IMG/VR virus record: IMGVR_UViG_3300036761_003779
Coordinates: 1 to 64,000 of that record
DNA length: 64,000 nt
Direction: 5' to 3' (one strand)
Source of the DNA: a virus
Shown: positions 2,858 through 40,452 of the stretch, one piece after another
How positions within the stretch are numbered: the first letter of the stretch is position 1
How the letters are laid out: each line of letters opens with the position of its first letter
The notes under the pieces: generated by a model
Database searches by the model: none
The model's input: only the letters and a program-made list of their open reading frames with translations
What the model was told of the DNA's origin: nothing
Translations under genes and position numbers: made by a program

Positions 2858-2922
2858 GGGGTCCCTCGCAACGGAGGTTCCAGGCTACCGCCGCCCCCTC
2901 CCCCGCCGCCAGGAAGATGCCT

Positions 2923-3555
2923 TCATTGACCCGGCGGAGGCGGGAGGACGCCCGGCGGGGGGTCCCCCGGGATCCATAGCCGCCGCTCCGCCTTCTGGAC
3001 CTCCGCGATCCGCTCCTTGAGCTTCACGAAGATGGGCCGGATCTGCTCCGGGATCTTCTCAGCCCCCGCCGCCTCGATCGCCGCCAGGACCTCCGCCGCG
3101 CGCTGCGGCTCCTTGGCCTGGAGGAGGAGGGAGATGGCGAGCGTCCCGTCCTGGATCTCGCTTCCCAGTTCCCGGGCGATCTCCCAGAGCCGCTCCCCCG
3201 TCTTCCGCCGCTCCTCCAGGTCGTCCCCCTCCGCCGTCCGCGGCCGCGCCGCCACCTGGTGGAGCCCCTTCCGCTCCACCATCAGGTCCTGCTTCCTCTT
3301 CAGCGCCTCCCGCGCGCCCTCGTCCCAGCCCGGGTGCTTCTTGTCCAGGAAGGTCTCCACGGAGGCCACGAGGAGGGTGGTCGCATTGCTCGCGGTCATG
3401 AGGGAGTTCATCGCCTTGAAGACATTATCCAGGCCATGCTCGACGTGGTTCAGCCTGGCCTCCTGCGTCTTCTGCTTCTCTCGGACCTCCTCCTCGAACG
3501 ACTTCTTCTTCTGGCGCGCGCCCTTGATGGCGCGCAGGCTACCCTTGTCCGGCAT
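2923..3555 (-). CDS. Hypothetical coiled-coil/helical protein
   Basis: GGAGG RBS before MPDKGS; protein-like composition. Confidence 0.75.
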   Translation of the reverse strand: MPDKGSLRAIKGARQKKKSFEEEVREKQKTQEARLNHVEHGLDNVFKAMNSLMTASNATTLLVASVETFLDKKHPGWDEGAREALKRKQDLMVERKGLHQVAARPRTAEGDDLEERRKTGERLWEIARELGSEIQDGTLAISLLLQAKEPQRAAEVLAAIEAAGAEKIPEQIRPIFVKLKERIAEVQKAERRLWIPGDPPPGVLPPPPGQ

Positions 3556-29175: not shown

Positions 29176-29402
29176 CAGAGCACCTCCAGGACCGCGAAGA
29201 GGGGGACCTTGACGGAGAGCCGGCCGGTCGCGCAGGCGTTGACCGCGTTCGCGGCGAACCAGGCCAGGCGCTCCGCGTCGACCACCAGGACGCGGAGGGT
29301 CACGCGGTTGACCTTCTGGATCTGGCAGCGGCCCCAGAAGTTCACCAGGATCTCCGCCCCCGTCTTGAGCGCCTTCAGCTCCTCCACCGTCGGCTTCGCC
29401 AT
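29175..29402 (-). CDS. Hypothetical small protein
   Basis: AAGGAG RBS; directly downstream of a promoter. Confidence 0.7.
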   Translation of the reverse strand: MAKPTVEELKALKTGAEILVNFWGRCQIQKVNRVTLRVLVVDAERLAWFAANAVNACATGRLSVKVPLFAVLEVL

Positions 29403-29426
29403 GTTGTTCTCCTTGTTCACCCTTAC

Positions 29427-29454
29427 ATCTTAGCTTCGAGAAAGAATCTGTACA
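29427..29454 (-). promoter_or_regulatory. Sigma70-like promoter with a conserved spacer box
   Basis: TGTACA-16 bp-TAAGAT; near-copy at 31021-31048. Confidence 0.65.
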
Positions 29455-29508: not shown

Positions 29509-30978
29509 TCAGCGGACGTAGACCAGCTCGGCCCGCGCGCGGGTGATGGCAACGTACAGGCAGTTGCTCTCCTGCCCGCCCTCCCGGAAGGAGTCCCGGA
29601 GGAGCCACACGCGGTCCCGCTCGAGCCCCTTGGCGCGGTGGGCGGTGGAGAGGGTCACGCGGGAGGCGTCGTCCGTGTCCGAGAACAGCTCCTCCAGGCG
29701 GGTCTTCAGCTCCGCCGTGGTCTCCGCCTCCGGGGCCAGGGCGCGGAGGCAGGCGCAGCGGTCCGAGAGCGCCTCGATCAGGCTCATCTCCGCGTCCGCG
29801 GAGATGAGCTTCTCGCGCTCCCGGTCCTCGTACGCCTCGAGCCAGTCCATCAGGTCCGCCGTGGTGGCGCACTTCGACTTCTCGACCATCCCGAGGATCT
29901 GGCCGAGGACGTCCCGCCCCTGGATGGCGGCCGGGATCCGGTTCCGGAGGAGGTCGAGGCAGATGGGGAGGAGCGGCGCGTTGGCGCGGCAGATGACGAA
30001 GTCGCCGCGGCGGACCTCCGCCAGCATCTTGGCGGCGGTCGAGTCCCGGACAATCCCGACCGGGTTCGAGGCGTCCGCCTCGTAGTCCGGGACCAGGCGC
30101 TTGGCCTCCGCGACGATGGAGGTCCCGCAGCGGTAGGTGCGGGGGAGGAGGAGGGTCCGGGCGTTCAGCTCGGAGACCATCCGGCCGAGGAAGCCGGAGT
30201 CCGCCGCGCGCCAGCCGTAAATGGCCTGGCGGTCGTCGCCGACGGCGATGAGCTGTCCGCCCCGCCTCACGCTCTTGCGGGCCAGCTCGAGCTGGGAGGG
30301 GTTCATGTCCTGCGCCTCGTCCACCACCACCAGGTCGTGCTGCCAGGGGGTGAGGCCGAAGTGGTGGGGGAACCAGAGCTGGTCGTCGAAGTCCACCTTC
30401 GAGCGGTCCGCGGCGGAGACCTCCATGGCCCGGGCGGCGAGCCGCGCGAGCGCCTCGATCTCCGCGTCCTCGTCCGCCACCCCGTAGCGGCGCCCCAGCT
30501 CCTCGATGGCGGCGAGGTCCGCGGGGTCCGTCAGGGTGATCTTGGCCAGCGTCGCCAGGCGCTGGACCTTCCCCTCCGGGCTGATGACCTTCTCCGCGGC
30601 CGCCGCCAGCTGCCGGCACGCCTCCCACGCCGCGTCCCGCCCCTTCTTGGCGTCGACCTCGATCCCCTTCCCCCACGCCTTCTTCACGGTGGCCAGGCCG
30701 ACGGAGTTCAGGGTCTTGGCGGAGGCGGTCTTCCAGTCCAGCCCGGCCTCCTGCAGCCGCTGGTCCAGCTCCTTGGCGTTCTTCACGTTGAAGGCGCAGG
30801 TGAGGACCTTCCGGGAGGCGTTCTTCCGGCAGTACCGGATGACCGCCTCGATGACCGTGGTGGTCTTGCCCGTCCCCGCGCGGGCGAGGATGACGAGGTC
30901 CCGGCGGACCGCGTGGATGGTCTCGACCGCCGTGAAAATGGCCTCCTGGTAGGTGCTCCAGCTCTTCGTCGTCTTCAT
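29509..30978 (-). CDS. UvrD/Rep-like SF1 helicase
   Basis: ARAGTGKTT, AFN, VVDEAQD, VGDDRQAIYGWR, TYRC, STAHRAKGLE, YVAITRA. Confidence 0.93.
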   Translation of the reverse strand: MKTTKSWSTYQEAIFTAVETIHAVRRDLVILARAGTGKTTTVIEAVIRYCRKNASRKVLTCAFNVKNAKELDQRLQEAGLDWKTASAKTLNSVGLATVKKAWGKGIEVDAKKGRDAAWEACRQLAAAAEKVISPEGKVQRLATLAKITLTDPADLAAIEELGRRYGVADEDAEIEALARLAARAMEVSAADRSKVDFDDQLWFPHHFGLTPWQHDLVVVDEAQDMNPSQLELARKSVRRGGQLIAVGDDRQAIYGWRAADSGFLGRMVSELNARTLLLPRTYRCGTSIVAEAKRLVPDYEADASNPVGIVRDSTAAKMLAEVRRGDFVICRANAPLLPICLDLLRNRIPAAIQGRDVLGQILGMVEKSKCATTADLMDWLEAYEDREREKLISADAEMSLIEALSDRCACLRALAPEAETTAELKTRLEELFSDTDDASRVTLSTAHRAKGLERDRVWLLRDSFREGGQESNCLYVAITRARAELVYVR

Positions 30979-31020
30979 GGTCGGCTCCTTTTTGGGACTC
31001 CGAGTTGTGCTCACATCCTC

Positions 31021-31048
31021 ATCTTAGCATAGGGAAAGAATCTGTCCA
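31021..31048 (-). promoter_or_regulatory. Sigma70-like promoter with a conserved spacer box
   Basis: TGGACA-16 bp-TAAGAT with extended -10 TG. Confidence 0.65.
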
Positions 31049-31340: not shown

Positions 31341-32470
31341 CTCACCCTCCTGCTCCGGAACCGGACCGCCAGCCGCTTCCGCTCCTCCGGCGGCCGGAGC
31401 GCCTCGAGGAGCGCCCCCTCGGGGGCGTCCCCCGGGTCCGTCCCCGCCGGGAGCGGCCGGAACTCGACCCGGGCCCAGGGGGACAGGTGCTCCTCTATGG
31501 TACTCCATAGAGTTTTACCACCCTCATCCCCGTCCGCCACGTGGATGACGACCGGGACCCCCCGGAGGCGCCGCGCCTGCTTGGGGTAGATCCGGCCGCC
31601 GAGGACCGCGACAACGTTCCCCGGCGAGACCGGGGAAACGCCCGGCTCCCGGAGGAGGAGCGCCCGGACCCGCTCCGCGTCGAAGATGCCCTCGACCAGC
31701 GCCGCCGGCCGGGAGGCGTCGATCCCGTCCGGCGCCCAGAGGACCCCGGCGTCCTTGACGAAGGGGAGCCCGGGGCAGTAGCGCCCCTTCAGCTTGGACG
31801 GAACTTTGAAGATCGAGCGGACGTACCAGTTGACCGCGCGCCCGCCCTCCCGGATGGGGAACAGGATCCCCGGGACCGTCCGGGCGAGGCAGGCCACGTC
31901 CCCCGCGGCGGAGACCGCCCGGAGGTCCAGCTCCGCGGCCCGGTCCGCGGAGATGCCCCGCCGCTCCAGGTAGGCGAGGAACTCCGGGCGCGCCCCCGCG
32001 ACCGGCCGGTTTGGCGGCCAGGTCAGCTCGCGCCAGTCCGGCGGCCGGACCGCCGCCGCGCGCCGGGAAAGCGCCTCCTCGAGCGCGGCCTCCCCGCTCC
32101 CGTCCTCCCGGACGTACTCCGCCCGGAGCCAGGCAAGCGCGGCCGCGCGCTCCTCCTCCCGCGGCCCGCGGTCCCAGACCTCGCCCCGGCAGCGGGCCAC
32201 GAGATCCGCGAAGTCGAGCCCCTTCAGCGGCCCGCCCGGGTGGCTCCAGCAGTTGAACCAGCCGAGCCGCGCGCGCCCCTCCCCGTCCGTGACGTCCTCC
32301 ACGCAGACGTGGAAGGAGGGGTTGCTCTCCCGGTGCTCCGGGTCCGGGCACTCGAGGTAGGCGTCCGACCCGTTCCGGTAGGCGATGACCATGCCAAGGT
32401 CCGCCAGGACCTCCTCCAGGTCGAGCCGGCGGAGGAGCCGCTGCGTCCGCTGGATGTCCCGCTGGCTCAC
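31337..32470 (-). CDS. DNA primase (CHC2-like Zn finger plus Toprim)
   Basis: CP...H.E.NPSF..FNCWSH; YL..RGI; LVEGIFDA; DGDEGG. Confidence 0.88.
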   Translation of the reverse strand: MSQRDIQRTQRLLRRLDLEEVLADLGMVIAYRNGSDAYLECPDPEHRESNPSFHVCVEDVTDGEGRARLGWFNCWSHPGGPLKGLDFADLVARCRGEVWDRGPREEERAAALAWLRAEYVREDGSGEAALEEALSRRAAAVRPPDWRELTWPPNRPVAGARPEFLAYLERRGISADRAAELDLRAVSAAGDVACLARTVPGILFPIREGGRAVNWYVRSIFKVPSKLKGRYCPGLPFVKDAGVLWAPDGIDASRPAALVEGIFDAERVRALLLREPGVSPVSPGNVVAVLGGRIYPKQARRLRGVPVVIHVADGDEGGKTLWSTIEEHLSPWARVEFRPLPAGTDPGDAPEGALLEALRPPEERKRLAVRFRSRRVR

Positions 32471-34788
32471 TTGCGCCCGTCGAAGTCGGTCGTGTGCGCG
32501 CCGACGCGGCAGATCTTAGGGTCGAAGAGGAAGCCCGCCGTCAGGTTCTGCGGCCCGCGCCGCTGCTTGGCGACCTTGACCTCCATCACGTCCTCGTCCG
32601 CGCTCTCCGGGTCGTAGTATTTCGAGCGGTGGAGGAGGAGGATCAGGTCCCCCACCTCCTCGTAGCCGCCGGAGTTCTTCAGCTCGTCTAGCCGCGGCCG
32701 CGGGTTCCGGGTCCGCTTGATGCGCCGGATCTGCTGGACCACGACTGCGCAGAACTTCCGCCGCTTCCCGAGCTTCTTGAGGCGCCGGAGGGCGTCCGTC
32801 ACCTCCGCGGGTTTGAGCTCACCCTGGAGGAGGTACTCAAAGAGGTCCAGGATGACGACGTCGAAGTCGTCCTCCTCCACGCGCATCTCCAGGTCGTCGA
32901 GGGAGGAGACCTCGTCGTCGAAGGTCACCAGCCCCGAGTCGAGGATCGCCCGGGCGGACCGCTCCATCCGGAAGACCTCCTCGTCCGTCAGCTGGTCCGG
33001 GGTCTTCACCAGCTTCTCCGCCTCCACCTTCGCGTTCGCGCAGAGCATCTGGTCGACGACGGAGGCGGTCCCCGCCTCCACCGGGCAGTTCAGGACGCGC
33101 CGGCCGGCGAGGACCTGCCGGAGCGTCAGATTGGAGCAGAAGGTGCTGTTATGAGTGGGGATCATCCCTTCCCCCGCAAGGTACACCCCATCCGGAGCGT
33201 CTACCTCGATGCAGCGCACCGGGACGCTCTCCACTGGCTCGATCATCTTTACGAAGCGCCGCTGTCTGCGCGGGGAGCGGTACGACTCGAAGTGGTTCTG
33301 CTTCCGCCCCAACTTGAAGAGGTCCCCGCGATCCAGCGAGAACCACATCCGGTAAGAAACGCTCGTCTCCGGGCATCTCCCCTTCACGGCTCGCTCCCCG
33401 GTTCCAACCCGGTAACCGAGGGAGCGAACTAACTGTAGGGCGTCAAGGAAGAGGGCGCGGTTACAGAGGTCCAGTCGAACGGTCCGCCCGTAGTTCTCAA
33501 CGTACCCGTCGGTGTCTAGGAGCCCCGCCAGAAGCTCCCTCCGCTGCAGCTCTGACGCCCTGAGGTAGAGCTGCGGGATGTGTTTGTTCCCCAGGAGCCC
33601 CGCCTCACGCAGCTTCTTCTTCAGCCCAATGACGTTATACGCTCTGAAATTTCTCCTGCTCCAGCTGCTAACCCTCACCTCATACCCGTCCAGCTCCACC
33701 CGCCTGGGGATCTCCGGATCCTCGGAACCAAACCGCCCATCCGCGGCGCCCCCGTCCCCGAGCCATACCCCAAGGGTGTACGGTTCGATCGGAAGCATGA
33801 CTTCCGGCAGGTCCAGCGGCGGGAAAGGTTCCACGGAGTGGTTTAGTCGATCGTCTTGGTTCACCCGGAGCGTCCGCGCAAGCTCTACCGTCGTCCGCAC
33901 CGATCCACTCCCCCCTCCCTTCCGCTCCCGGTCGGTTCGGGTGAGCCAGAGGTGCTCGGCGTCCGCCACGAGCGAGGACCCGTCCGAGAAGACCACCCGG
34001 AAGCATGGCCTCCGAAGGAGGACCTCCCCGACCTTACGCACGGAGCGCCGCCTACCATCCGAACCAAAGACGGTCTCGCCGACGGAGATGGAACCCATCT
34101 CCACCCAACCGGCGGGCGTCGGGATCTTGGTGTCCAGCGCCAGCGCCTTGCCCATCCCCGGGCGCGCCGCCAGGACGACGAGGTCCCCGGGCTTGAGGCC
34201 CGCGTACAGGTGCTCGTCCAGGCCCGTGAAGCGGAGCGGGACGAACCGCGGTGACTTCCCGGACCGGGACTCCTCGAGGTCCGCCATCCACTCCGCGTGG
34301 AGCGCCCTCCCCTTCTTGACCCGCGTCGCGGAGGAGCCGGCGTCCCGGAGCTTCTTGACGATGGAGAGGGCGTGTCCCTGCGCCTCCTCCAGCCCGGCGT
34401 TCGGGTCGTCCATCGAGGCGTAGAGGGAGGCGAAGTCCTCCCCGGCGGAGAACTTGGCCGCGTCGCGGCGGAGCTGGTCCAGGTGAATCGACAGGTTCTC
34501 CGGCGGGAGCGGCTCGAACTGCTCCTCGAGCTTCCGGAGGTAGGCGAGGTCGACCTCCCCGGCCCCCAGCTGAACAACGCTGTCCGCCGCGTAGGAGGCG
34601 CCCCGCTTCCGGAGTTCCCGGAGCGCGGCCGCGATGGCGCGGTGCCGCGGGTGGTTGAACAGCTCCGGCCGGAGGGCGCCCGCCTCCCGCTGGAAGGCCG
34701 CCGGGTCCCGGACGAGGGCGCCGAGGACCACCTGCTCGTTGTCCACGTTCACGTCGATTAGGAGCGTCCCGGAGTCCCGCTTGCTCAC
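32467..34788 (-). CDS. dnaB: DnaB-like replicative helicase containing an intein
   Basis: EQVVLGAL; LAARPGMGK|intein|STF; VILD; QQIRR; PRLDELKNSG..EE.GD..LLLHR; KQRRG. Confidence 0.9.
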   Translation of the reverse strand: MSKRDSGTLLIDVNVDNEQVVLGALVRDPAAFQREAGALRPELFNHPRHRAIAAALRELRKRGASYAADSVVQLGAGEVDLAYLRKLEEQFEPLPPENLSIHLDQLRRDAAKFSAGEDFASLYASMDDPNAGLEEAQGHALSIVKKLRDAGSSATRVKKGRALHAEWMADLEESRSGKSPRFVPLRFTGLDEHLYAGLKPGDLVVLAARPGMGKALALDTKIPTPAGWVEMGSISVGETVFGSDGRRRSVRKVGEVLLRRPCFRVVFSDGSSLVADAEHLWLTRTDRERKGGGSGSVRTTVELARTLRVNQDDRLNHSVEPFPPLDLPEVMLPIEPYTLGVWLGDGGAADGRFGSEDPEIPRRVELDGYEVRVSSWSRRNFRAYNVIGLKKKLREAGLLGNKHIPQLYLRASELQRRELLAGLLDTDGYVENYGRTVRLDLCNRALFLDALQLVRSLGYRVGTGERAVKGRCPETSVSYRMWFSLDRGDLFKLGRKQNHFESYRSPRRQRRFVKMIEPVESVPVRCIEVDAPDGVYLAGEGMIPTHNSTFCSNLTLRQVLAGRRVLNCPVEAGTASVVDQMLCANAKVEAEKLVKTPDQLTDEEVFRMERSARAILDSGLVTFDDEVSSLDDLEMRVEEDDFDVVILDLFEYLLQGELKPAEVTDALRRLKKLGKRRKFCAVVVQQIRRIKRTRNPRPRLDELKNSGGYEEVGDLILLLHRSKYYDPESADEDVMEVKVAKQRRGPQNLTAGFLFDPKICRVGAHTTDFDGRK
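33148..34146 (-). mobile_element. Class 3 intein with LAGLIDADG endonuclease in the DnaB P-loop (333 aa)
   Basis: Starts with Ala (ALALDT); HLW / VRCI / PTHN WCT triad; LGVWLGDG and LAGLLDTDG; +1 Ser. Confidence 0.9.
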
Positions 34789-35435
34789 GCGCCCCTCCTC
34801 GTCCCGCCGGTCAGGGCGGCCACCTCGAAGTAGCGGAGGAAGTCCCGGAAGCGCGGGGAGAGCCCCGGGAGCCGCTTGCCGGAGGCGTCCGCCTCCCCGT
34901 CCACGTTCCCCGTCAGGATGACGGACCGCTCGTCCTCCCAGCGCCGCTCCACGACGGACTCCACGAACTGCTCCTCCCCTCGGTAGCCGGCGACGCGCGC
35001 CACGTCGTCGATCAGGAGGAGGGAGCAGGAGTCGAGCCGGTCCCTGGTGGCGCTCCGACGCTCCTCGTCCTCCCCCTCCTCCTCCCGCCCGGAGAGGGAG
35101 CGGAAGCGGAGGTCCGCGAGCTGCGGCACCCGGATGAAGAGCGGCGAGAAGCCCGGCGGGCAGCGCCCGTCCGACGTGCCCAGGTACGCCTGGAGGAGGA
35201 GCCAGCAGGCGGCCCGGGTCTTCCCGCTCCCGAAGGGTCCGCTCAGGAGGAGGAAGACCGGCTCCGTCAGGAAGCGCCGGGAGCGGAGGGTCTCCCCGAT
35301 CGCGGCGATCTGGTCCAGCGCGGCGAGGTAGTCCCCGGAGGCGCCCGGTCGCATGCCGTCGAGGTCCAGGCGGGCGAACTTCCGCGGGCACGCCGTCCGC
35401 GGGAGGAACTTGCTAAGCTCGACCTCGCTCATCAT
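34785..35435 (-). CDS. DnaC/IstB-like helicase loader ATPase
   Basis: LSGPFGSGKT, LLLIDDV, ILTGN. Confidence 0.85.
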   Translation of the reverse strand: MMSEVELSKFLPRTACPRKFARLDLDGMRPGASGDYLAALDQIAAIGETLRSRRFLTEPVFLLLSGPFGSGKTRAACWLLLQAYLGTSDGRCPPGFSPLFIRVPQLADLRFRSLSGREEEGEDEERRSATRDRLDSCSLLLIDDVARVAGYRGEEQFVESVVERRWEDERSVILTGNVDGEADASGKRLPGLSPRFRDFLRYFEVAALTGGTRRGA

Positions 35436-37166: not shown

Positions 37167-39941
37167 TCAGGACAGTCGGCGGAACGGGAGGGCGCGGATC
37201 CGCGCCTGGAAGAACCGCCCCTTGCTCCCCGCCGCGAGTAGCTCCGGGAGGAGCGGCCCGGCGCCCGGGTAGACGTACTCGGCGCCCTTCCTGAACCGGA
37301 CGAGGAGGTCCTCCCCGTCCCGGCGGACCGCCGCGAGGTTCTCGCTCTCGACCGCGACCCAGCCGCCCGCCGCCGACGCCGGCCCGGGCTCAGCCTCCAG
37401 CCCCCGGAGCAGCTCCGGCGTCAGCTCGACCCGCTCCCCGGCCCGCTCCGAGAACCAGGCCCGGTGCGGCGCCTGGACCGCGTTCCGGATGGCCCGGGCG
37501 TGCGACCGGAGCGGCCGGACGAGGCGGTCCCAGAAGTAGAAGTACACGGCGTCGACCTTCCCCTCGTGCCGACGCTTGAGGCGCCCGACCTGCTGCGTGA
37601 ACCGCCCCGGGTTTGCCGCCGCCGGCGTCATGCCGAAGCCGCGGTCGAGCCGCTTCACGTCCATCCCCTCGTCCGCCACCGTCGTCCCGACCGCCACGCG
37701 GAGGGTCCCGTCCTCGAGCCCCTCCGCCGTCCGGTCCTGCTCCTTCGCGTCCCGCCCGCCCATGAGGCGCCCGGCGTGGACGCCCCGCCGCTTCAGCCAC
37801 GCCTGGATCTCGAGGCACATCTCCCGGCGGTCCGCGAGGAGGAGGCACGTCCGCCCGGCGGCGATCTCCGGGAGGAGGTACTCGAGGACCCGCGCGCGCC
37901 GGCGCTCGTCCCGCGTGGCCGCGTCGAGCATCTCCGCGTAGGTGTTCAGCGGCCCCGCAAAGTGGGTCTCCTTCGCCCAGCGGCGGACCGCCGCCGTCCC
38001 CGTCTCCCGCTCCAGCCGCTCGAAGCCGGCCGCCTCCAGCTCCGCCTCCCGGTTCAGGTCGAAGGCGAAGTCCGTCGGGACCACGACCACGTCCACGGGG
38101 ACGATGCGGTTGAAGCGGTCCAGGTCCTCGTCCCGGATCTCGAAGAGGACCCGCGGCCCGCGCGCCGTCCCGCCGCCCCGCTTCGGGACGTACTCGACCC
38201 CGAAGGCGTCGAAGAACAGCGGCTCCTTCTTGTCCCGCCGGTGCGGCGTGGCGGTGGCCGCCAGCCGGTTCCGAGCCGGGAATAAACTGATACATTCCGA
38301 GAACGTAGACGCGGCGCAATGGTGCGCCTCGTCAAGTATCAGCGTCCCCCAGCGGTTCACCCAGCCCGGGTCCGCCTTGACCTTGTTCAGGACGGAGCGG
38401 ATCATCCCGACGATCAGGTCCCCGTCCCGCTTCTCCCGCCCGTAGAGGACACCGATCCGCCGCTCCGGGACGGAGAACCGCGCCGCCGCCTTCCCCACCC
38501 ACTGCCGGAGGATCCGCTCCGTGTGGCAGAGCACCAGCGTCCGCTCCCCGAGGTCCGAGATGGCCTTGAGCAGGATCTCCGTCTTCCCGGAGTTGTGATG
38601 CCAGAGACCTCCGGCCCAGTAGTTCCCAAAGACCGGGACGTTGAAGTCAAAGTACGGCTCCGCCGGGACCGCCCGCGCGGAGAGGACCCGGACGAACTCC
38701 ACTGGACCCGGGTTATAGGTCCCTGTTAAGATGGACCCACCTAGAGGTGACTCGGATGAGAGAACGCCAGATGTGGGACAAAGCGCGCCGTCAGCGAGCC
38801 GCGGAGCTGTACCGCTCCGGACTCCTCCTAGAGGAGGTGGCGTCCGCCCTTGGGACGAGTCGGAACCGCGTCCGGGAGGCGCTCCGAACGCTTGGGGTGG
38901 AGGTTCGCCCGACTGCGTTCCAGAAGGGCGGGCTGACCGGTCGGAGGAACCCGAATTGGAAGAGCGATCGCCGGGTGGATGAGGATGGATACGTCCTCCT
39001 TCGGGTCCCGGGACACCCGGACGCAAAGCCGGGGGGATGGGTACTCGAGCACCGCCTGGTGATGGAGGGTCTTCTTGGGCGCCGCCTGACCGCGGAGGAA
39101 GTGGTCCATCACCGAAACGGAGATCGAGGAGACAACCGTCCGGAGAACCTCCAGCCGTTCGACTCCAATGGAGCGCATCTTGCGCATGAGCTTCGAGGGA
39201 GGACGCCGAACTGGACGGAAGGAGGACGCCAACGGACCCTGGACGGCCTGGAGCGGTGGCGTGGAGAGCTTCATAGATCTCACGGGCGGAGAGGAAATGG
39301 TGGCCGTCCCAGAAGAGGTGTCCCGGCCTGACGCGGAAGGTCCCCACCTCCGTCTCGATCTCCACGAGCTGCGCCGCCTCGAACATCACCGGCGGGAGCG
39401 CCGCGGAGACCACGGGACCGTTCGGTCCCATTGCCCAGACGTGGAAGGGCGCGCCCTCCGCCCAGCGCTGGAGGGCGGTTACATCGCTCCCGTCCGTTGG
39501 GTCTCGAATAACGGTAGATCCGTGGATACAAGCGCACGGGCCGACGAGGATGCCGGCGCGCCGGGCGACGAGCGCCTTGGCCGCGCTCCGCTGGTCCGGC
39601 CCCAGCTCCCACTCCGGCGGGCTCCGGTAGACGAAGGGGAGCGGCCCGGTCCCGCGGACCGTCCGGTCCACGGGCTCGATCTCCGCGCCGACCCGCGCCA
39701 GGAGCCGCTGGAGGACGACCCAGCCGCCGCGCGGGAGGAGGAGGTCCTCCCCCTCGTCCAGCACCAGGCTGAGCTTCCGCGGGGTCTCCCCCGTCCAGAA
39801 GCCCATGTTCGACTTCTTCCAGAACTCCGGGTTGTCCACCTCGAACGCCTCCCGGACCTCCCGGAGGGAGAGCCCGGCGTCCTTGGCCGCGCGCTTGCTC
39901 AGGCGGAGGTGGGCGTCGACGACGACCTTCAGCTTGACCAT
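37167..39941 (-). CDS. SF2 (ResIII/XPB-like) helicase with an intein and a C-terminal KTSC domain
   Basis: GPCA|intein|SGKT, LILDEAHH, ATATP.R, EGMD, QQVGR; KTSC-like VESENL..L.VRF..G..Y.Y..SKGRFF. Confidence 0.88.
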   Translation of the reverse strand: MVKLKVVVDAHLRLSKRAAKDAGLSLREVREAFEVDNPEFWKKSNMGFWTGETPRKLSLVLDEGEDLLLPRGGWVVLQRLLARVGAEIEPVDRTVRGTGPLPFVYRSPPEWELGPDQRSAAKALVARRAGILVGPCACIHGSTVIRDPTDGSDVTALQRWAEGAPFHVWAMGPNGPVVSAALPPVMFEAAQLVEIETEVGTFRVRPGHLFWDGHHFLSAREIYEALHATAPGRPGSVGVLLPSSSASSLEAHAQDALHWSRTAGGSPDGCLLDLRFGDGPLPPRSGGAQEDPPSPGGARVPIPPALRPGVPGPEGGRIHPHPPGDRSSNSGSSDRSARPSGTQSGEPPPQAFGAPPGRGSDSSQGRTPPPLGGVRSGTAPRLADGALCPTSGVLSSESPLGGSILTGTYNPGPVEFVRVLSARAVPAEPYFDFNVPVFGNYWAGGLWHHNSGKTEILLKAISDLGERTLVLCHTERILRQWVGKAAARFSVPERRIGVLYGREKRDGDLIVGMIRSVLNKVKADPGWVNRWGTLILDEAHHCAASTFSECISLFPARNRLAATATPHRRDKKEPLFFDAFGVEYVPKRGGGTARGPRVLFEIRDEDLDRFNRIVPVDVVVVPTDFAFDLNREAELEAAGFERLERETGTAAVRRWAKETHFAGPLNTYAEMLDAATRDERRRARVLEYLLPEIAAGRTCLLLADRREMCLEIQAWLKRRGVHAGRLMGGRDAKEQDRTAEGLEDGTLRVAVGTTVADEGMDVKRLDRGFGMTPAAANPGRFTQQVGRLKRRHEGKVDAVYFYFWDRLVRPLRSHARAIRNAVQAPHRAWFSERAGERVELTPELLRGLEAEPGPASAAGGWVAVESENLAAVRRDGEDLLVRFRKGAEYVYPGAGPLLPELLAAGSKGRFFQARIRALPFRRLS
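38703..38751 (+). promoter_or_regulatory. Putative promoter and RBS for the antisense HNH
   Basis: TGGACC-18 bp-TAAGAT with extended -10 TG; GAGGTG before the ATG at 38756. Confidence 0.45.
38756..39331 (+). CDS. HTH-HNH homing endonuclease encoded antisense within the intein
   Basis: N-terminal HTH; G..NPNWK..DGY..EHRLVME..LGR.L...EVVHHRNGDRGDNRPENL. Confidence 0.92.
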   Translation: MRERQMWDKARRQRAAELYRSGLLLEEVASALGTSRNRVREALRTLGVEVRPTAFQKGGLTGRRNPNWKSDRRVDEDGYVLLRVPGHPDAKPGGWVLEHRLVMEGLLGRRLTAEEVVHHRNGDRGDNRPENLQPFDSNGAHLAHELRGRTPNWTEGGRQRTLDGLERWRGELHRSHGRRGNGGRPRRGVPA

Positions 39942-39972
39942 GCGGGGAGGTAGGCGGGATGAGCCGGTGAGC

Positions 39973-40452
39973 TCAGAACTTCTTGGCCTCGACCTGCTCC
40001 AGGGAGGCCGGCGGGGGCTCCAGCTTCGGGAGCCGCCGCGCCGCGGGCTTCGCCGCCGGCGGGAGCCGCCGGACCGGCGCCTCGAGCCGCTCCCGCATTG
40101 CCGGCGTTATGACGCGCCGCGCGGTCGCCAGCTGGAGGACCGCCTTGGTCAGCTCCGCCTGCCCGCGCGCCACCTCGTCCCGGAGCTTCTCCGTCCGCGC
40201 CTCGCAGGCCCGCGCCACGGCGTCCAGGTCCGCCCGGCTCGCCCGGGCCCACTCCTGGAGCTGGGTCACCTGCTGCGCGGACTCCGAGTTGACGGCCCGG
40301 ACCGTGTCCCGGGAGGCCGCCTGGCGGCCCTGGATGGCCGCGAAGGCGCCCGGGAGCGCGGCCAGGAGGTAGGCCAGGACGTAGGCCAGCGGACGTCCCC
40401 AGCGCTGTCCCGCGCGCTGTAGCGCGGTGGTCTCCTCGGAGGGCTCAGGCAT
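39973..40452 (-). CDS. Membrane-anchored coiled-coil protein
   Basis: N-terminal hydrophobic segment followed by a coiled coil. Confidence 0.65.
   Translation of the reverse strand: MPEPSEETTALQRAGQRWGRPLAYVLAYLLAALPGAFAAIQGRQAASRDTVRAVNSESAQQVTQLQEWARASRADLDAVARACEARTEKLRDEVARGQAELTKAVLQLATARRVITPAMRERLEAPVRRLPPAAKPAARRLPKLEPPPASLEQVEAKKF

Follow-up and report, generated by a model that had tools for sequence, protein, structure and literature searches.

An HNH homing endonuclease gene nested antisense within a Walker A intein of a viral SF2 helicase, and the recurrence of this layout among related elements

The stretch of DNA examined here (the window) comprises 64,000 nucleotides (nt) of the IMG/VR virus record IMGVR_UViG_3300036761_003779, positions 1 to 64,000 of that record. 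On its minus strand it encodes a superfamily 2 (SF2) DNA helicase whose Walker A motif (P-loop) is interrupted by an intein, and within the DNA of this intein, on the plus strand, lies a complete gene for a homing endonuclease of the HNH type. This HNH gene is the sole plus-strand gene within a block of minus-strand genes. The features identified at the locus are as follows, with the evidence for each given in brackets.

37167 to 39941, minus strand: open reading frame (ORF) of the SF2 helicase precursor, 924 amino acids (aa), containing the intein and a C-terminal KTSC-like domain (ORF, Pfam and PHROG)
39531 to 39941, minus strand: N-extein, residues 1-137, ending with the first half of Walker A, ...GPCA (comparison with the intein-free protein P0002)
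38592 to 39530, minus strand: class-1 intein, 313 aa, Cys1...His312-Asn313, followed by Ser+1 (boundaries, empty site in a contig of run X4, invariant residues)
39255 to 39530, minus strand: N-terminal splicing lobe of the intein, residues 1-92, with block A Cys1 and block B His71 (predicted local distance difference test score (pLDDT) of 93-98; profile match at 2-93)
38700 to 39254, minus strand: linker of the intein, residues 93-277, the stop-free antisense reading of the HNH gene, rich in Gly, Pro and Ser and predicted to be disordered (pLDDT, composition, codon positions)
38592 to 38699, minus strand: C-terminal splicing lobe of the intein, residues 278-313, with block F Asp295 and block G His312-Asn313 (pLDDT of 94-98; profile match at 258-299)
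37167 to 38591, minus strand: C-extein, beginning with SGKT, the second half of Walker A (Pfam and alignment to P0002)
38703 to 38732, plus strand: promoter-like site, TGGACC at 38703-38708, an 18-nt spacer and TGT-TAAGAT, an extended -10 with the -10 hexamer at 38727-38732 (pattern match only)
38744 to 38749, plus strand: Shine-Dalgarno (SD)-like GAGGTG, the GAGGT core of which ends 7 nt before the ATG at 38756 (pattern match)
38756 to 39331, plus strand: helix-turn-helix (HTH)-HNH homing endonuclease gene, 191 aa, nested wholly in the intein (Pfam, PHROG, homologues, codon positions)
38780 to 38890, plus strand: N-terminal three-helix HTH DNA-binding module, residues 9-45 (HTH_23; helices at 9-20, 25-32 and 36-45, pLDDT of 92-97)
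38969 to 39190, plus strand: HNH nuclease core, residues 72-145, EEVVHHRNGD...DNRPENL...H (HNH_3, invariant residues, pLDDT of 90-95)
39255 to 39331, plus strand: 3' tail of the HNH gene, unconstrained and overlapping the N-terminal lobe of the intein including its block B codons (codon signature; residues 178-191 disordered)

Within the 924-aa precursor, matches to the Pfam domains ResIII, DEAD and Helicase_C were found to begin only at residue 451, with a further weak match to KTSC at residues 866-916, and the protein was assigned to PHROG 16 (DNA helicase). The insertion corresponds to residues 138-450 of the helicase and interrupts Walker A between the fourth and fifth residues of the motif, as GPCA/SGKT; Cys1 is encoded at 39528-39530 and Asn313 at 38592-38594, with Ser+1 directly after. 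An earlier reading of the window made from its sequence alone (the original prediction) had placed a 313-aa intein at exactly this site, and this was borne out by the boundaries, by the invariant residues described below and by the empty site observed in protein P0002 and in a contig of run X4.

P0002, which shares 92% identity with the window helicase, is an intein-free allele with an uninterrupted GILVGPCASGKT and thus an intact GPCASGKT. A contig of run X4 (1919 nt, approximately 92% identical, from a wastewater metagenome of another study) covers positions 37393-38592 of the window and then 39532-40216, joining 38592 directly to 39532. As exactly 939 nt of the window are absent from this contig, the empty site exists in nature. 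The helicase of a relative, L018, was also found to be without an intein, so that the search for intein-free alleles suggested with the original prediction did yield such alleles. The intein-bearing form was represented by identical contigs in two further sediment runs; the sequencing runs listed for this DNA were all DNA runs. Approximately 30 close helicase homologues do not possess this Walker A intein, and six (P0023, P0030, P0032, P0034, P0036 and P0038) contain a different intein at a DEAHH/C site. Taken with the fact that the nearest relatives of the window intein reside in SMC-like and AAA genes, this pattern of presence and absence among homologues indicates that the intein was acquired horizontally. 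In the 73%-identical L018 (4001-6063), the intein-free helicase of 539 aa and the KTSC-like C-terminal domain are encoded by separate adjacent ORFs, which are fused in the window.

The splicing residues C1, H71, D295 and N313 are invariant in 35 inteins of the family (alignment A2), with H312 being at least 90% conserved. A profile built from this alignment matched the solved DnaB mini-inteins, with E values as low as 6e-27, as well as that of Mtu RecA, with an E value of 6.5e-20; these matches were confined to positions 2-93 and 258-299, with none between. The Pfam model Intein_splicing (PF14890) was matched by 33 of the 35 inteins, and it is through the family profile, rather than by a single-sequence Pfam match, that the membership of the window copy was established. 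Structure prediction with AlphaFold2 (alignment A2) gave pLDDT values of 93-98 for residues 1-92 and 94-98 for residues 278-313, and of approximately 40-55 for residues 100-275, where essentially no secondary structure was predicted. Comparison of this model using Foldseek identified the splicing domain of Mtu RecA (template modelling (TM) score of 0.82-0.84, root mean square deviation of 2.7-2.9), with DnaB mini-inteins also being matched. The linker, of approximately 180 residues, consists of 18% Gly, 17% Pro and 15% Ser; its composition and predicted disorder agree with the original description of a low-complexity sense frame devoid of a folded domain. Judged from these profiles and models, the insert is a class-1 intein with a predicted HINT fold, which would be expected to undergo splicing.

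The HNH gene begins with an ATG at 38756, with an in-frame GTG at 38747. Its product matched Pfam HNH_3 (PF13392) at residues 99-132 with an E value of 1.3e-8 (34.7 bits vs a cut-off of 24.8) and HTH_23 with an E value of 3e-4, as well as several HNH families of PHROG, the best being PHROG 20891 (3e-26). Homologues numbered 136 at E<=1e-10 in a large protein set, with identities of 38-56%, the nearest being 56% identical. The catalytic columns H118, H119, N131 and H141 are invariant in alignment A1, in which the window copy is included, and the ORF is full length with all family-invariant residues. The intact reverse-strand HTH-HNH gene of the original prediction was in this way verified by Pfam, PHROG, homologues and conserved residues. 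The AlphaFold2 model of the protein has a mean pLDDT of 82, with strands at 116-119 and 132-135 followed by a helix at 138-145 (pLDDT >90), a C-terminal helix at 155-177 and a disordered tail; the tails of these proteins are not conserved in the alignment. A sequence profile search of the PDB with the HNH protein matched the HTH part only.

To identify relatives, viral, metagenome and genome contigs were scanned with the HNH protein. Of approximately 95 loci with close HNH relatives, 74 (67 unique) were found to possess a stop-free ORF on the opposite strand that spans the HNH gene in the same relative frame. These nested loci range in GC content from 0.37 to 0.69, and 68 of them have recognisable intein C-terminal blocks (F/G). 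In this arrangement HNH codon position 1 lies opposite intein codon position 1, which is not the classic shadow frame of high-GC DNA. The intein frame remained stop-free in 1.8% of trials when the codons of the window HNH gene were shuffled synonymously and in a fraction of 0.011 for locus L001, and for four low-GC relatives this was the case in 0 of 5000 shuffles (P <2e-4). Over the HNH core of approximately 105 codons, all 67 unique embedded copies have zero antisense stops vs a mean of 4.2 stops in that frame among 26 free-standing HNH homologues, only one of which has none. An explanation of the sense frame as a high-GC shadow ORF was considered and rejected, given that high-GC shadow ORFs classically occupy a different frame and that the nesting is still found at 37-51% GC. 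Selection preserves this nesting across dozens of related elements.

The family is large, given that the read-through intein profile (protein level) matched the representatives of 775 protein clusters (E<=1e-30), in most cases over the full length in a single match. When the intein region was searched against a set of 5.8 billion proteins, only one read-through protein was obtained (P0160, an AAA protein), which is probably explained by gene callers splitting such ORFs. A comparable situation is found at the locus itself. The source gene call, P0001, is a 511-aa helicase fragment whose start, at residue 414 (VEFVRV, with a GTG read as Met), falls within the intein just upstream of block F, and the HNH ORF is absent from its own protein-database matches. 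Both the helicase and the HNH genes seem to have been mis-annotated or missed at source.

Codon positions were used to determine which frame is under selection in the overlap. When 62 embedded HNH genes were aligned by codon, they differed pairwise by 0.48, 0.43 and 0.68 at HNH positions 1, 2 and 3, respectively. The third position being the most variable is a protein-coding signature of the HNH frame. Across the linker it is intein codon position 2 that varies most, and the amino acid sequence of that frame is without selection. Outside the linker the intein frame is the one preserved, with intein position 3 most variable in the C-terminal 40 residues (0.69) and in the N-terminal part upstream of the HNH stop codon (0.71). 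A sliding window analysis located the switch between the two regimes at intein residue ~88-100, and it follows from this location that the last ~25 HNH codons, which lie over block B, evolve as intein. The original prediction had regarded the HNH tail and block B as truly dual-coding. The physical overlap was confirmed (His71 is encoded at 39318-39320 and the HNH stop codon at 39329-39331), but selection there acts on the intein frame only and the HNH tail is predicted to be disordered. The tail over block B is an unconstrained run-on, leaving a dual-coding stretch of at most a few codons.

Substitutions between the close pair L076 and L078 (91% identical) gave the same picture for the HNH body, with 18 synonymous and 6 non-synonymous changes in the HNH frame, the same substitutions amounting to 2 synonymous and 22 non-synonymous changes in the intein frame. 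This was the only informative close pair; the nearest relative of the window HNH, at 56% identity, is too distant for a ratio of non-synonymous to synonymous rates (dN/dS) to be obtained. The comparison of strands that had been proposed with the original prediction therefore gave the outcome it anticipated, on codon positions and on this pair, namely purifying selection on the HNH frame and stop avoidance alone in the sense-frame linker.

The two parts of the element have also diverged together. Among 54 members, HNH identity and splicing-domain identity were found to co-vary (Mantel r of 0.48, reached in 0 of 2000 permutations). Nearly all aligned members are inserted at the same site, between the fourth and fifth residues of GxxxxGK[ST], with Ser, Cys or Thr as the +1 residue. 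The host genes include the SF2 helicase of the window, other helicases (PHROG 62), an SMC/RecF-like ATPase, AAA and AAA_2 ATPases, and large terminase subunits, and the nearest relatives of the window intein, at 29-36% identity, were found in SMC-like and AAA genes. Because a single relative frame is found throughout and the HNH has diverged in step with the splicing domain, an old composite moving as a unit is favoured over a recent private invasion. A subset of members (L054, L077, L080 and L112) is inserted later in Walker A, after GK (...GK/C...HHN/T...), which suggests two neighbouring homing sites in the P-loop.

Candidate signals for expression of the HNH gene were located by pattern matching. 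The promoter-like site, with the pattern TGGACC-18-TGTTAAGAT, falls in intein codons at the boundary between the linker and the C-terminal lobe. Its hexamer TAAGAT recurs at 29427 and 31021 on the minus strand, as -10-like elements in AT-richer intergenic sites that precede a ribosome binding site and an ATG, and TGNTAAGAT has three occurrences vs 0.18 expected. The GAGGTG, the TGGACC-18-TGtTAAGAT pattern and the shared -10 hexamer of the original prediction were all located where it had placed them, as pattern matches. An SD-like motif of at least 5 nt was present at the candidate HNH start in 50% of family members vs 11% at control positions. On these patterns, the HNH gene probably has an extended -10 promoter of its own. 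No terminator was found in a generic scan.

Two other observations were made regarding these signals. The minus-strand intergenic sites at 29380-29440 and 30975-31035 share the motif TG(T/G)ACAGATTCTTTC-N7-GCTAAGAT upstream of an SD-like site and an ATG, and to judge from this common motif they are probably phage promoters of one class. In addition, an inverted repeat, GGACC-N9-GGTCC, is situated at 38704-38722 on the plus strand, between the putative -35 and -10 of the HNH promoter, and could act as an operator or as a hairpin limiting HNH expression.

The locus and its relatives are most readily understood as a composite homing element, consisting of a cis-splicing intein together with an antisense HNH gene, and this reading is held with good confidence. 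We infer under it that the intein splices, that the antisense gene is transcribed and translated, that its product cleaves with a defined specificity and that the element is currently mobile. Two genes reading the same DNA in opposite directions would form one composite selfish element. The intein would be translated as part of a single continuous helicase precursor, straight through the antisense gene, with the linker having no function at the sequence level and being required only to be stop-free so that the C-terminal lobe and the C-extein get made. Protein splicing would then remove the whole insert, restoring the P-loop. The HTH-HNH gene, of a type that is otherwise free-standing and possessing its own start codon and SD-like site, would be expressed from its own plus-strand transcript. 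Its product would most likely nick or cut intein-less alleles at or near the DNA encoding Walker A, with repair copying the intein and the HNH gene as one unit (homing). As the target would be conserved P-loop coding sequence, such an element could spread among unrelated P-loop ATPase genes. The original prediction had offered either a mini-intein invaded by a free-standing HNH gene or a composite of the two, and this is supported by lobes that match solved mini-inteins, by a middle that is predicted to be disordered and by the avoidance of stops. Convergent transcription, likewise raised there, might regulate the helicase.

A number of results weigh against this interpretation. The window's own intein reached no Pfam intein model (E<=0.1, E<=0.01), and its block B reads R-P-G-H where T-x-x-H is usual, making splicing efficiency uncertain. 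Considered by itself, the 70%-GC window offers a stop-free frame of only modest improbability (P of 0.018), the strong case resting on the relatives. Foldseek identified no significant match for the HNH model, the best being I-HmuI with an E value of 0.18, and the proposed HNH promoter, a pattern match only, was not listed by a generic sigma-70 scan. Against recent mobility in particular, no near-identical copy of the window element was found in a second extein among the relatives.

Some of these results would also fit a decaying relic, in which the HNH gene is silent or inactive in this phage, the intein persists by splicing and the open frame is mostly a by-product of 70% GC. The modest probability in the window (P of 0.018), the lack of a near-identical copy in another extein and the long shadow ORFs with which the window is filled are all compatible with this. 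However, the HNH ORF is full length with every family-invariant residue present, the start codon, SD-like site and promoter-like site are in place, the frame (position 1 opposite position 1) is not that in which high-GC shadow ORFs classically arise, and purifying selection acts on the HNH frame across the family, so that a relic is improbable. Very improbable, too, is a split intein of the kind known from fractured genes, in which split inteins have a free-standing GIY-YIG or Vsr-like endonuclease gene between their halves (Dassa et al. 2009, PMC2677866). Here, one polypeptide would consist of the N-extein and N-terminal lobe and the other of the C-terminal lobe and C-extein, starting from about the GTG at residue 414, with trans-splicing of the two and the HNH gene lying between. 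The 511-aa source call starting just before block F would suit such an arrangement, endonuclease genes of the free-standing kind are known to occur between the halves of split inteins (PMC2677866), and convergent transcription could truncate the sense mRNA. Yet the sense frame has no stop across the linker, and selection has kept it open in all 67 unique relatives, at GC contents as low as 37%; there would be no point in this were translation to end behind the N-terminal lobe. Documented fractured genes, moreover, have a same-strand endonuclease with explicit stop and start codons.

An insert that does not splice is a further alternative, being retained in the mature helicase as an in-frame loop that is tolerated and conceals an endonuclease gene. 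A precedent is ShiLan, a hidden HNH insertion in phage DNA methylases in which the HNH occupies a different frame of the same strand and is not accompanied by a splicing domain (Arsenault et al. 2025, PMC11855218). Stop-free, non-splicing HNH insertions therefore exist (PMC11855218), the core of the ShiLan HNH is ~52% identical to that of the window, and antisense HNH genes were found in the methylase ORFs of L128 and L135, which are without intein motifs. All catalytic intein residues and a confidently predicted HINT fold are nonetheless present in the window, and an insert of 313 residues in the middle of Walker A would abolish ATP binding unless removed, making this the least credible of the alternatives and extremely unlikely. 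The composite homing element may be taken a step further, with the antisense layout as an adaptive design: a still-mobile unit of mini-intein and HTH-HNH gene that homes into DNA encoding Walker A wherever a P-loop ATPase gene is suitable and in this way hops from one unrelated gene to another, with the timing and dosage of the nuclease uncoupled from the host gene or tied to it by convergent transcription, and that represents a live intermediate of a 'splicing-first' origin of bifunctional inteins. This extension is tentative and, on present evidence, doubtful.

Inteins with an antisense endonuclease have been described previously, with LAGLIDADG in DnaX of Synechocystis and a SpoVR-like protein of Chloroflexus (Gorbalenya 1998; Gogarten 2002) and with LAGLIDADG and VSR-like types in actinophages (Gosselin, Arsenault & Gogarten, bioRxiv 10.1101/2025.01.02.630785). 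The latter work lists HNH only as an in-frame intein type (bioRxiv 10.1101/2025.01.02.630785), and no report of an antisense HNH in an intein was found in a full-text literature search. The window intein resembles these cases in its opposite-strand ORF, which is located between splicing blocks and is spanned by an open sense frame, in its proposed origin from a mini-intein invaded by a free-standing endonuclease gene, and in that intein and nuclease appear to move together. It differs from the published LAGLIDADG and VSR-like examples in its nuclease, an HTH-HNH (HNH_3), and from those of actinophages in that its family occupies the Walker A of ATPases of many types and is frequent in environmental phage contigs and those of metagenome-assembled genomes. 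The present analysis adds tests that address stop avoidance and strand-specific selection directly.

With canonical bifunctional inteins, such as PI-SceI and the LAGLIDADG intein of the neighbouring DnaB-like gene, the window intein shares the HINT domain, the location of the nuclease DNA between blocks B/N4 and F, and the presumed homing cycle. Unlike in these, the nuclease would be a separate polypeptide from a separate transcript of the opposite strand, and the in-frame insert is a predicted disordered spacer. Fractured genes, found mostly in phages, likewise have, where an intein canonically accommodates its endonuclease, an endonuclease gene of the free-standing type equipped with its own signals for expression; they consist of two ORFs with a co-oriented endonuclease, whereas the window has one continuous 924-aa ORF and an antisense endonuclease. 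As in ShiLan, a related HNH (~52% identical in the core) is hidden in an insert that is stop-free in the host frame, with the differences that the insert in the window is a bona fide intein and the HNH gene is antisense. The P-loop mini-inteins Ssp/Npu DnaB and Mtu RecA provide the best sequence and structure matches for the splicing lobes. Unlike the window intein, the solved DnaB and RecA mini-inteins, engineered or natural, have no nested gene.

In the textbook view, mobile inteins arose through the capture of a free-standing endonuclease gene by a mini-intein. Few direct intermediates have been available, namely fractured genes and a handful of antisense LAGLIDADG and VSR cases. The window element comes from a large and diverse family in which the gene that was captured has remained a cistron of its own on the opposite strand, with both readings visibly maintained by selection. 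It also provides a clean natural example of two-strand coding, with the protein encoded on one strand and no more than freedom from stops demanded of the other; the switch between them is mappable to within about ten codons. For annotation, the family is relevant in that gene callers split or truncate host genes of this kind. The P-loop target may explain how one element has spread among helicases, terminases, AAA and SMC-like ATPases. Furthermore, splicing lobes that tolerate a disordered insert of ~180 residues may be of interest to intein engineers.

Additional insertions were observed in the window and among its relatives. The adjoining DnaB-like helicase/primase gene (974 aa, 32467-35391, minus strand) contains a second intein of approximately 350 aa, located after GMGK of its Walker A. 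This intein starts with Ala (ALALDT...), ends with ...THN/S and has the in-frame LAGLIDADG-like motifs LGVWLGDGG and LLDTDGYV, and the window phage thus possesses canonical and non-canonical P-loop inteins in adjacent replication genes. At L135:1421-4387 and L128:1982-3706 (minus strand), in two low-GC contigs (0.32-0.38), ORFs of N6_N4 DNA methylases are stop-free and have an HNH_3 gene of the window family antisense inside them, that of L135 being situated at 2902-3372 on the plus strand. Their relative frame is likewise that of the window family and no intein blocks were seen in either; these methylase insertions would be the antisense counterpart of the published ShiLan-type insertion. A scan of viral contigs with P0032, one of the six helicase homologues with the DEAHH/C intein, as a query yielded no match. 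The intein of these six homologues interrupts motif II, is approximately 340 aa in length and has no Walker A intein alongside it. Its middle is charged and partly conserved (LLQG...DRDRSRR), with no match to a Pfam domain, and may be another out-of-frame or antisense reading of a nuclease gene.

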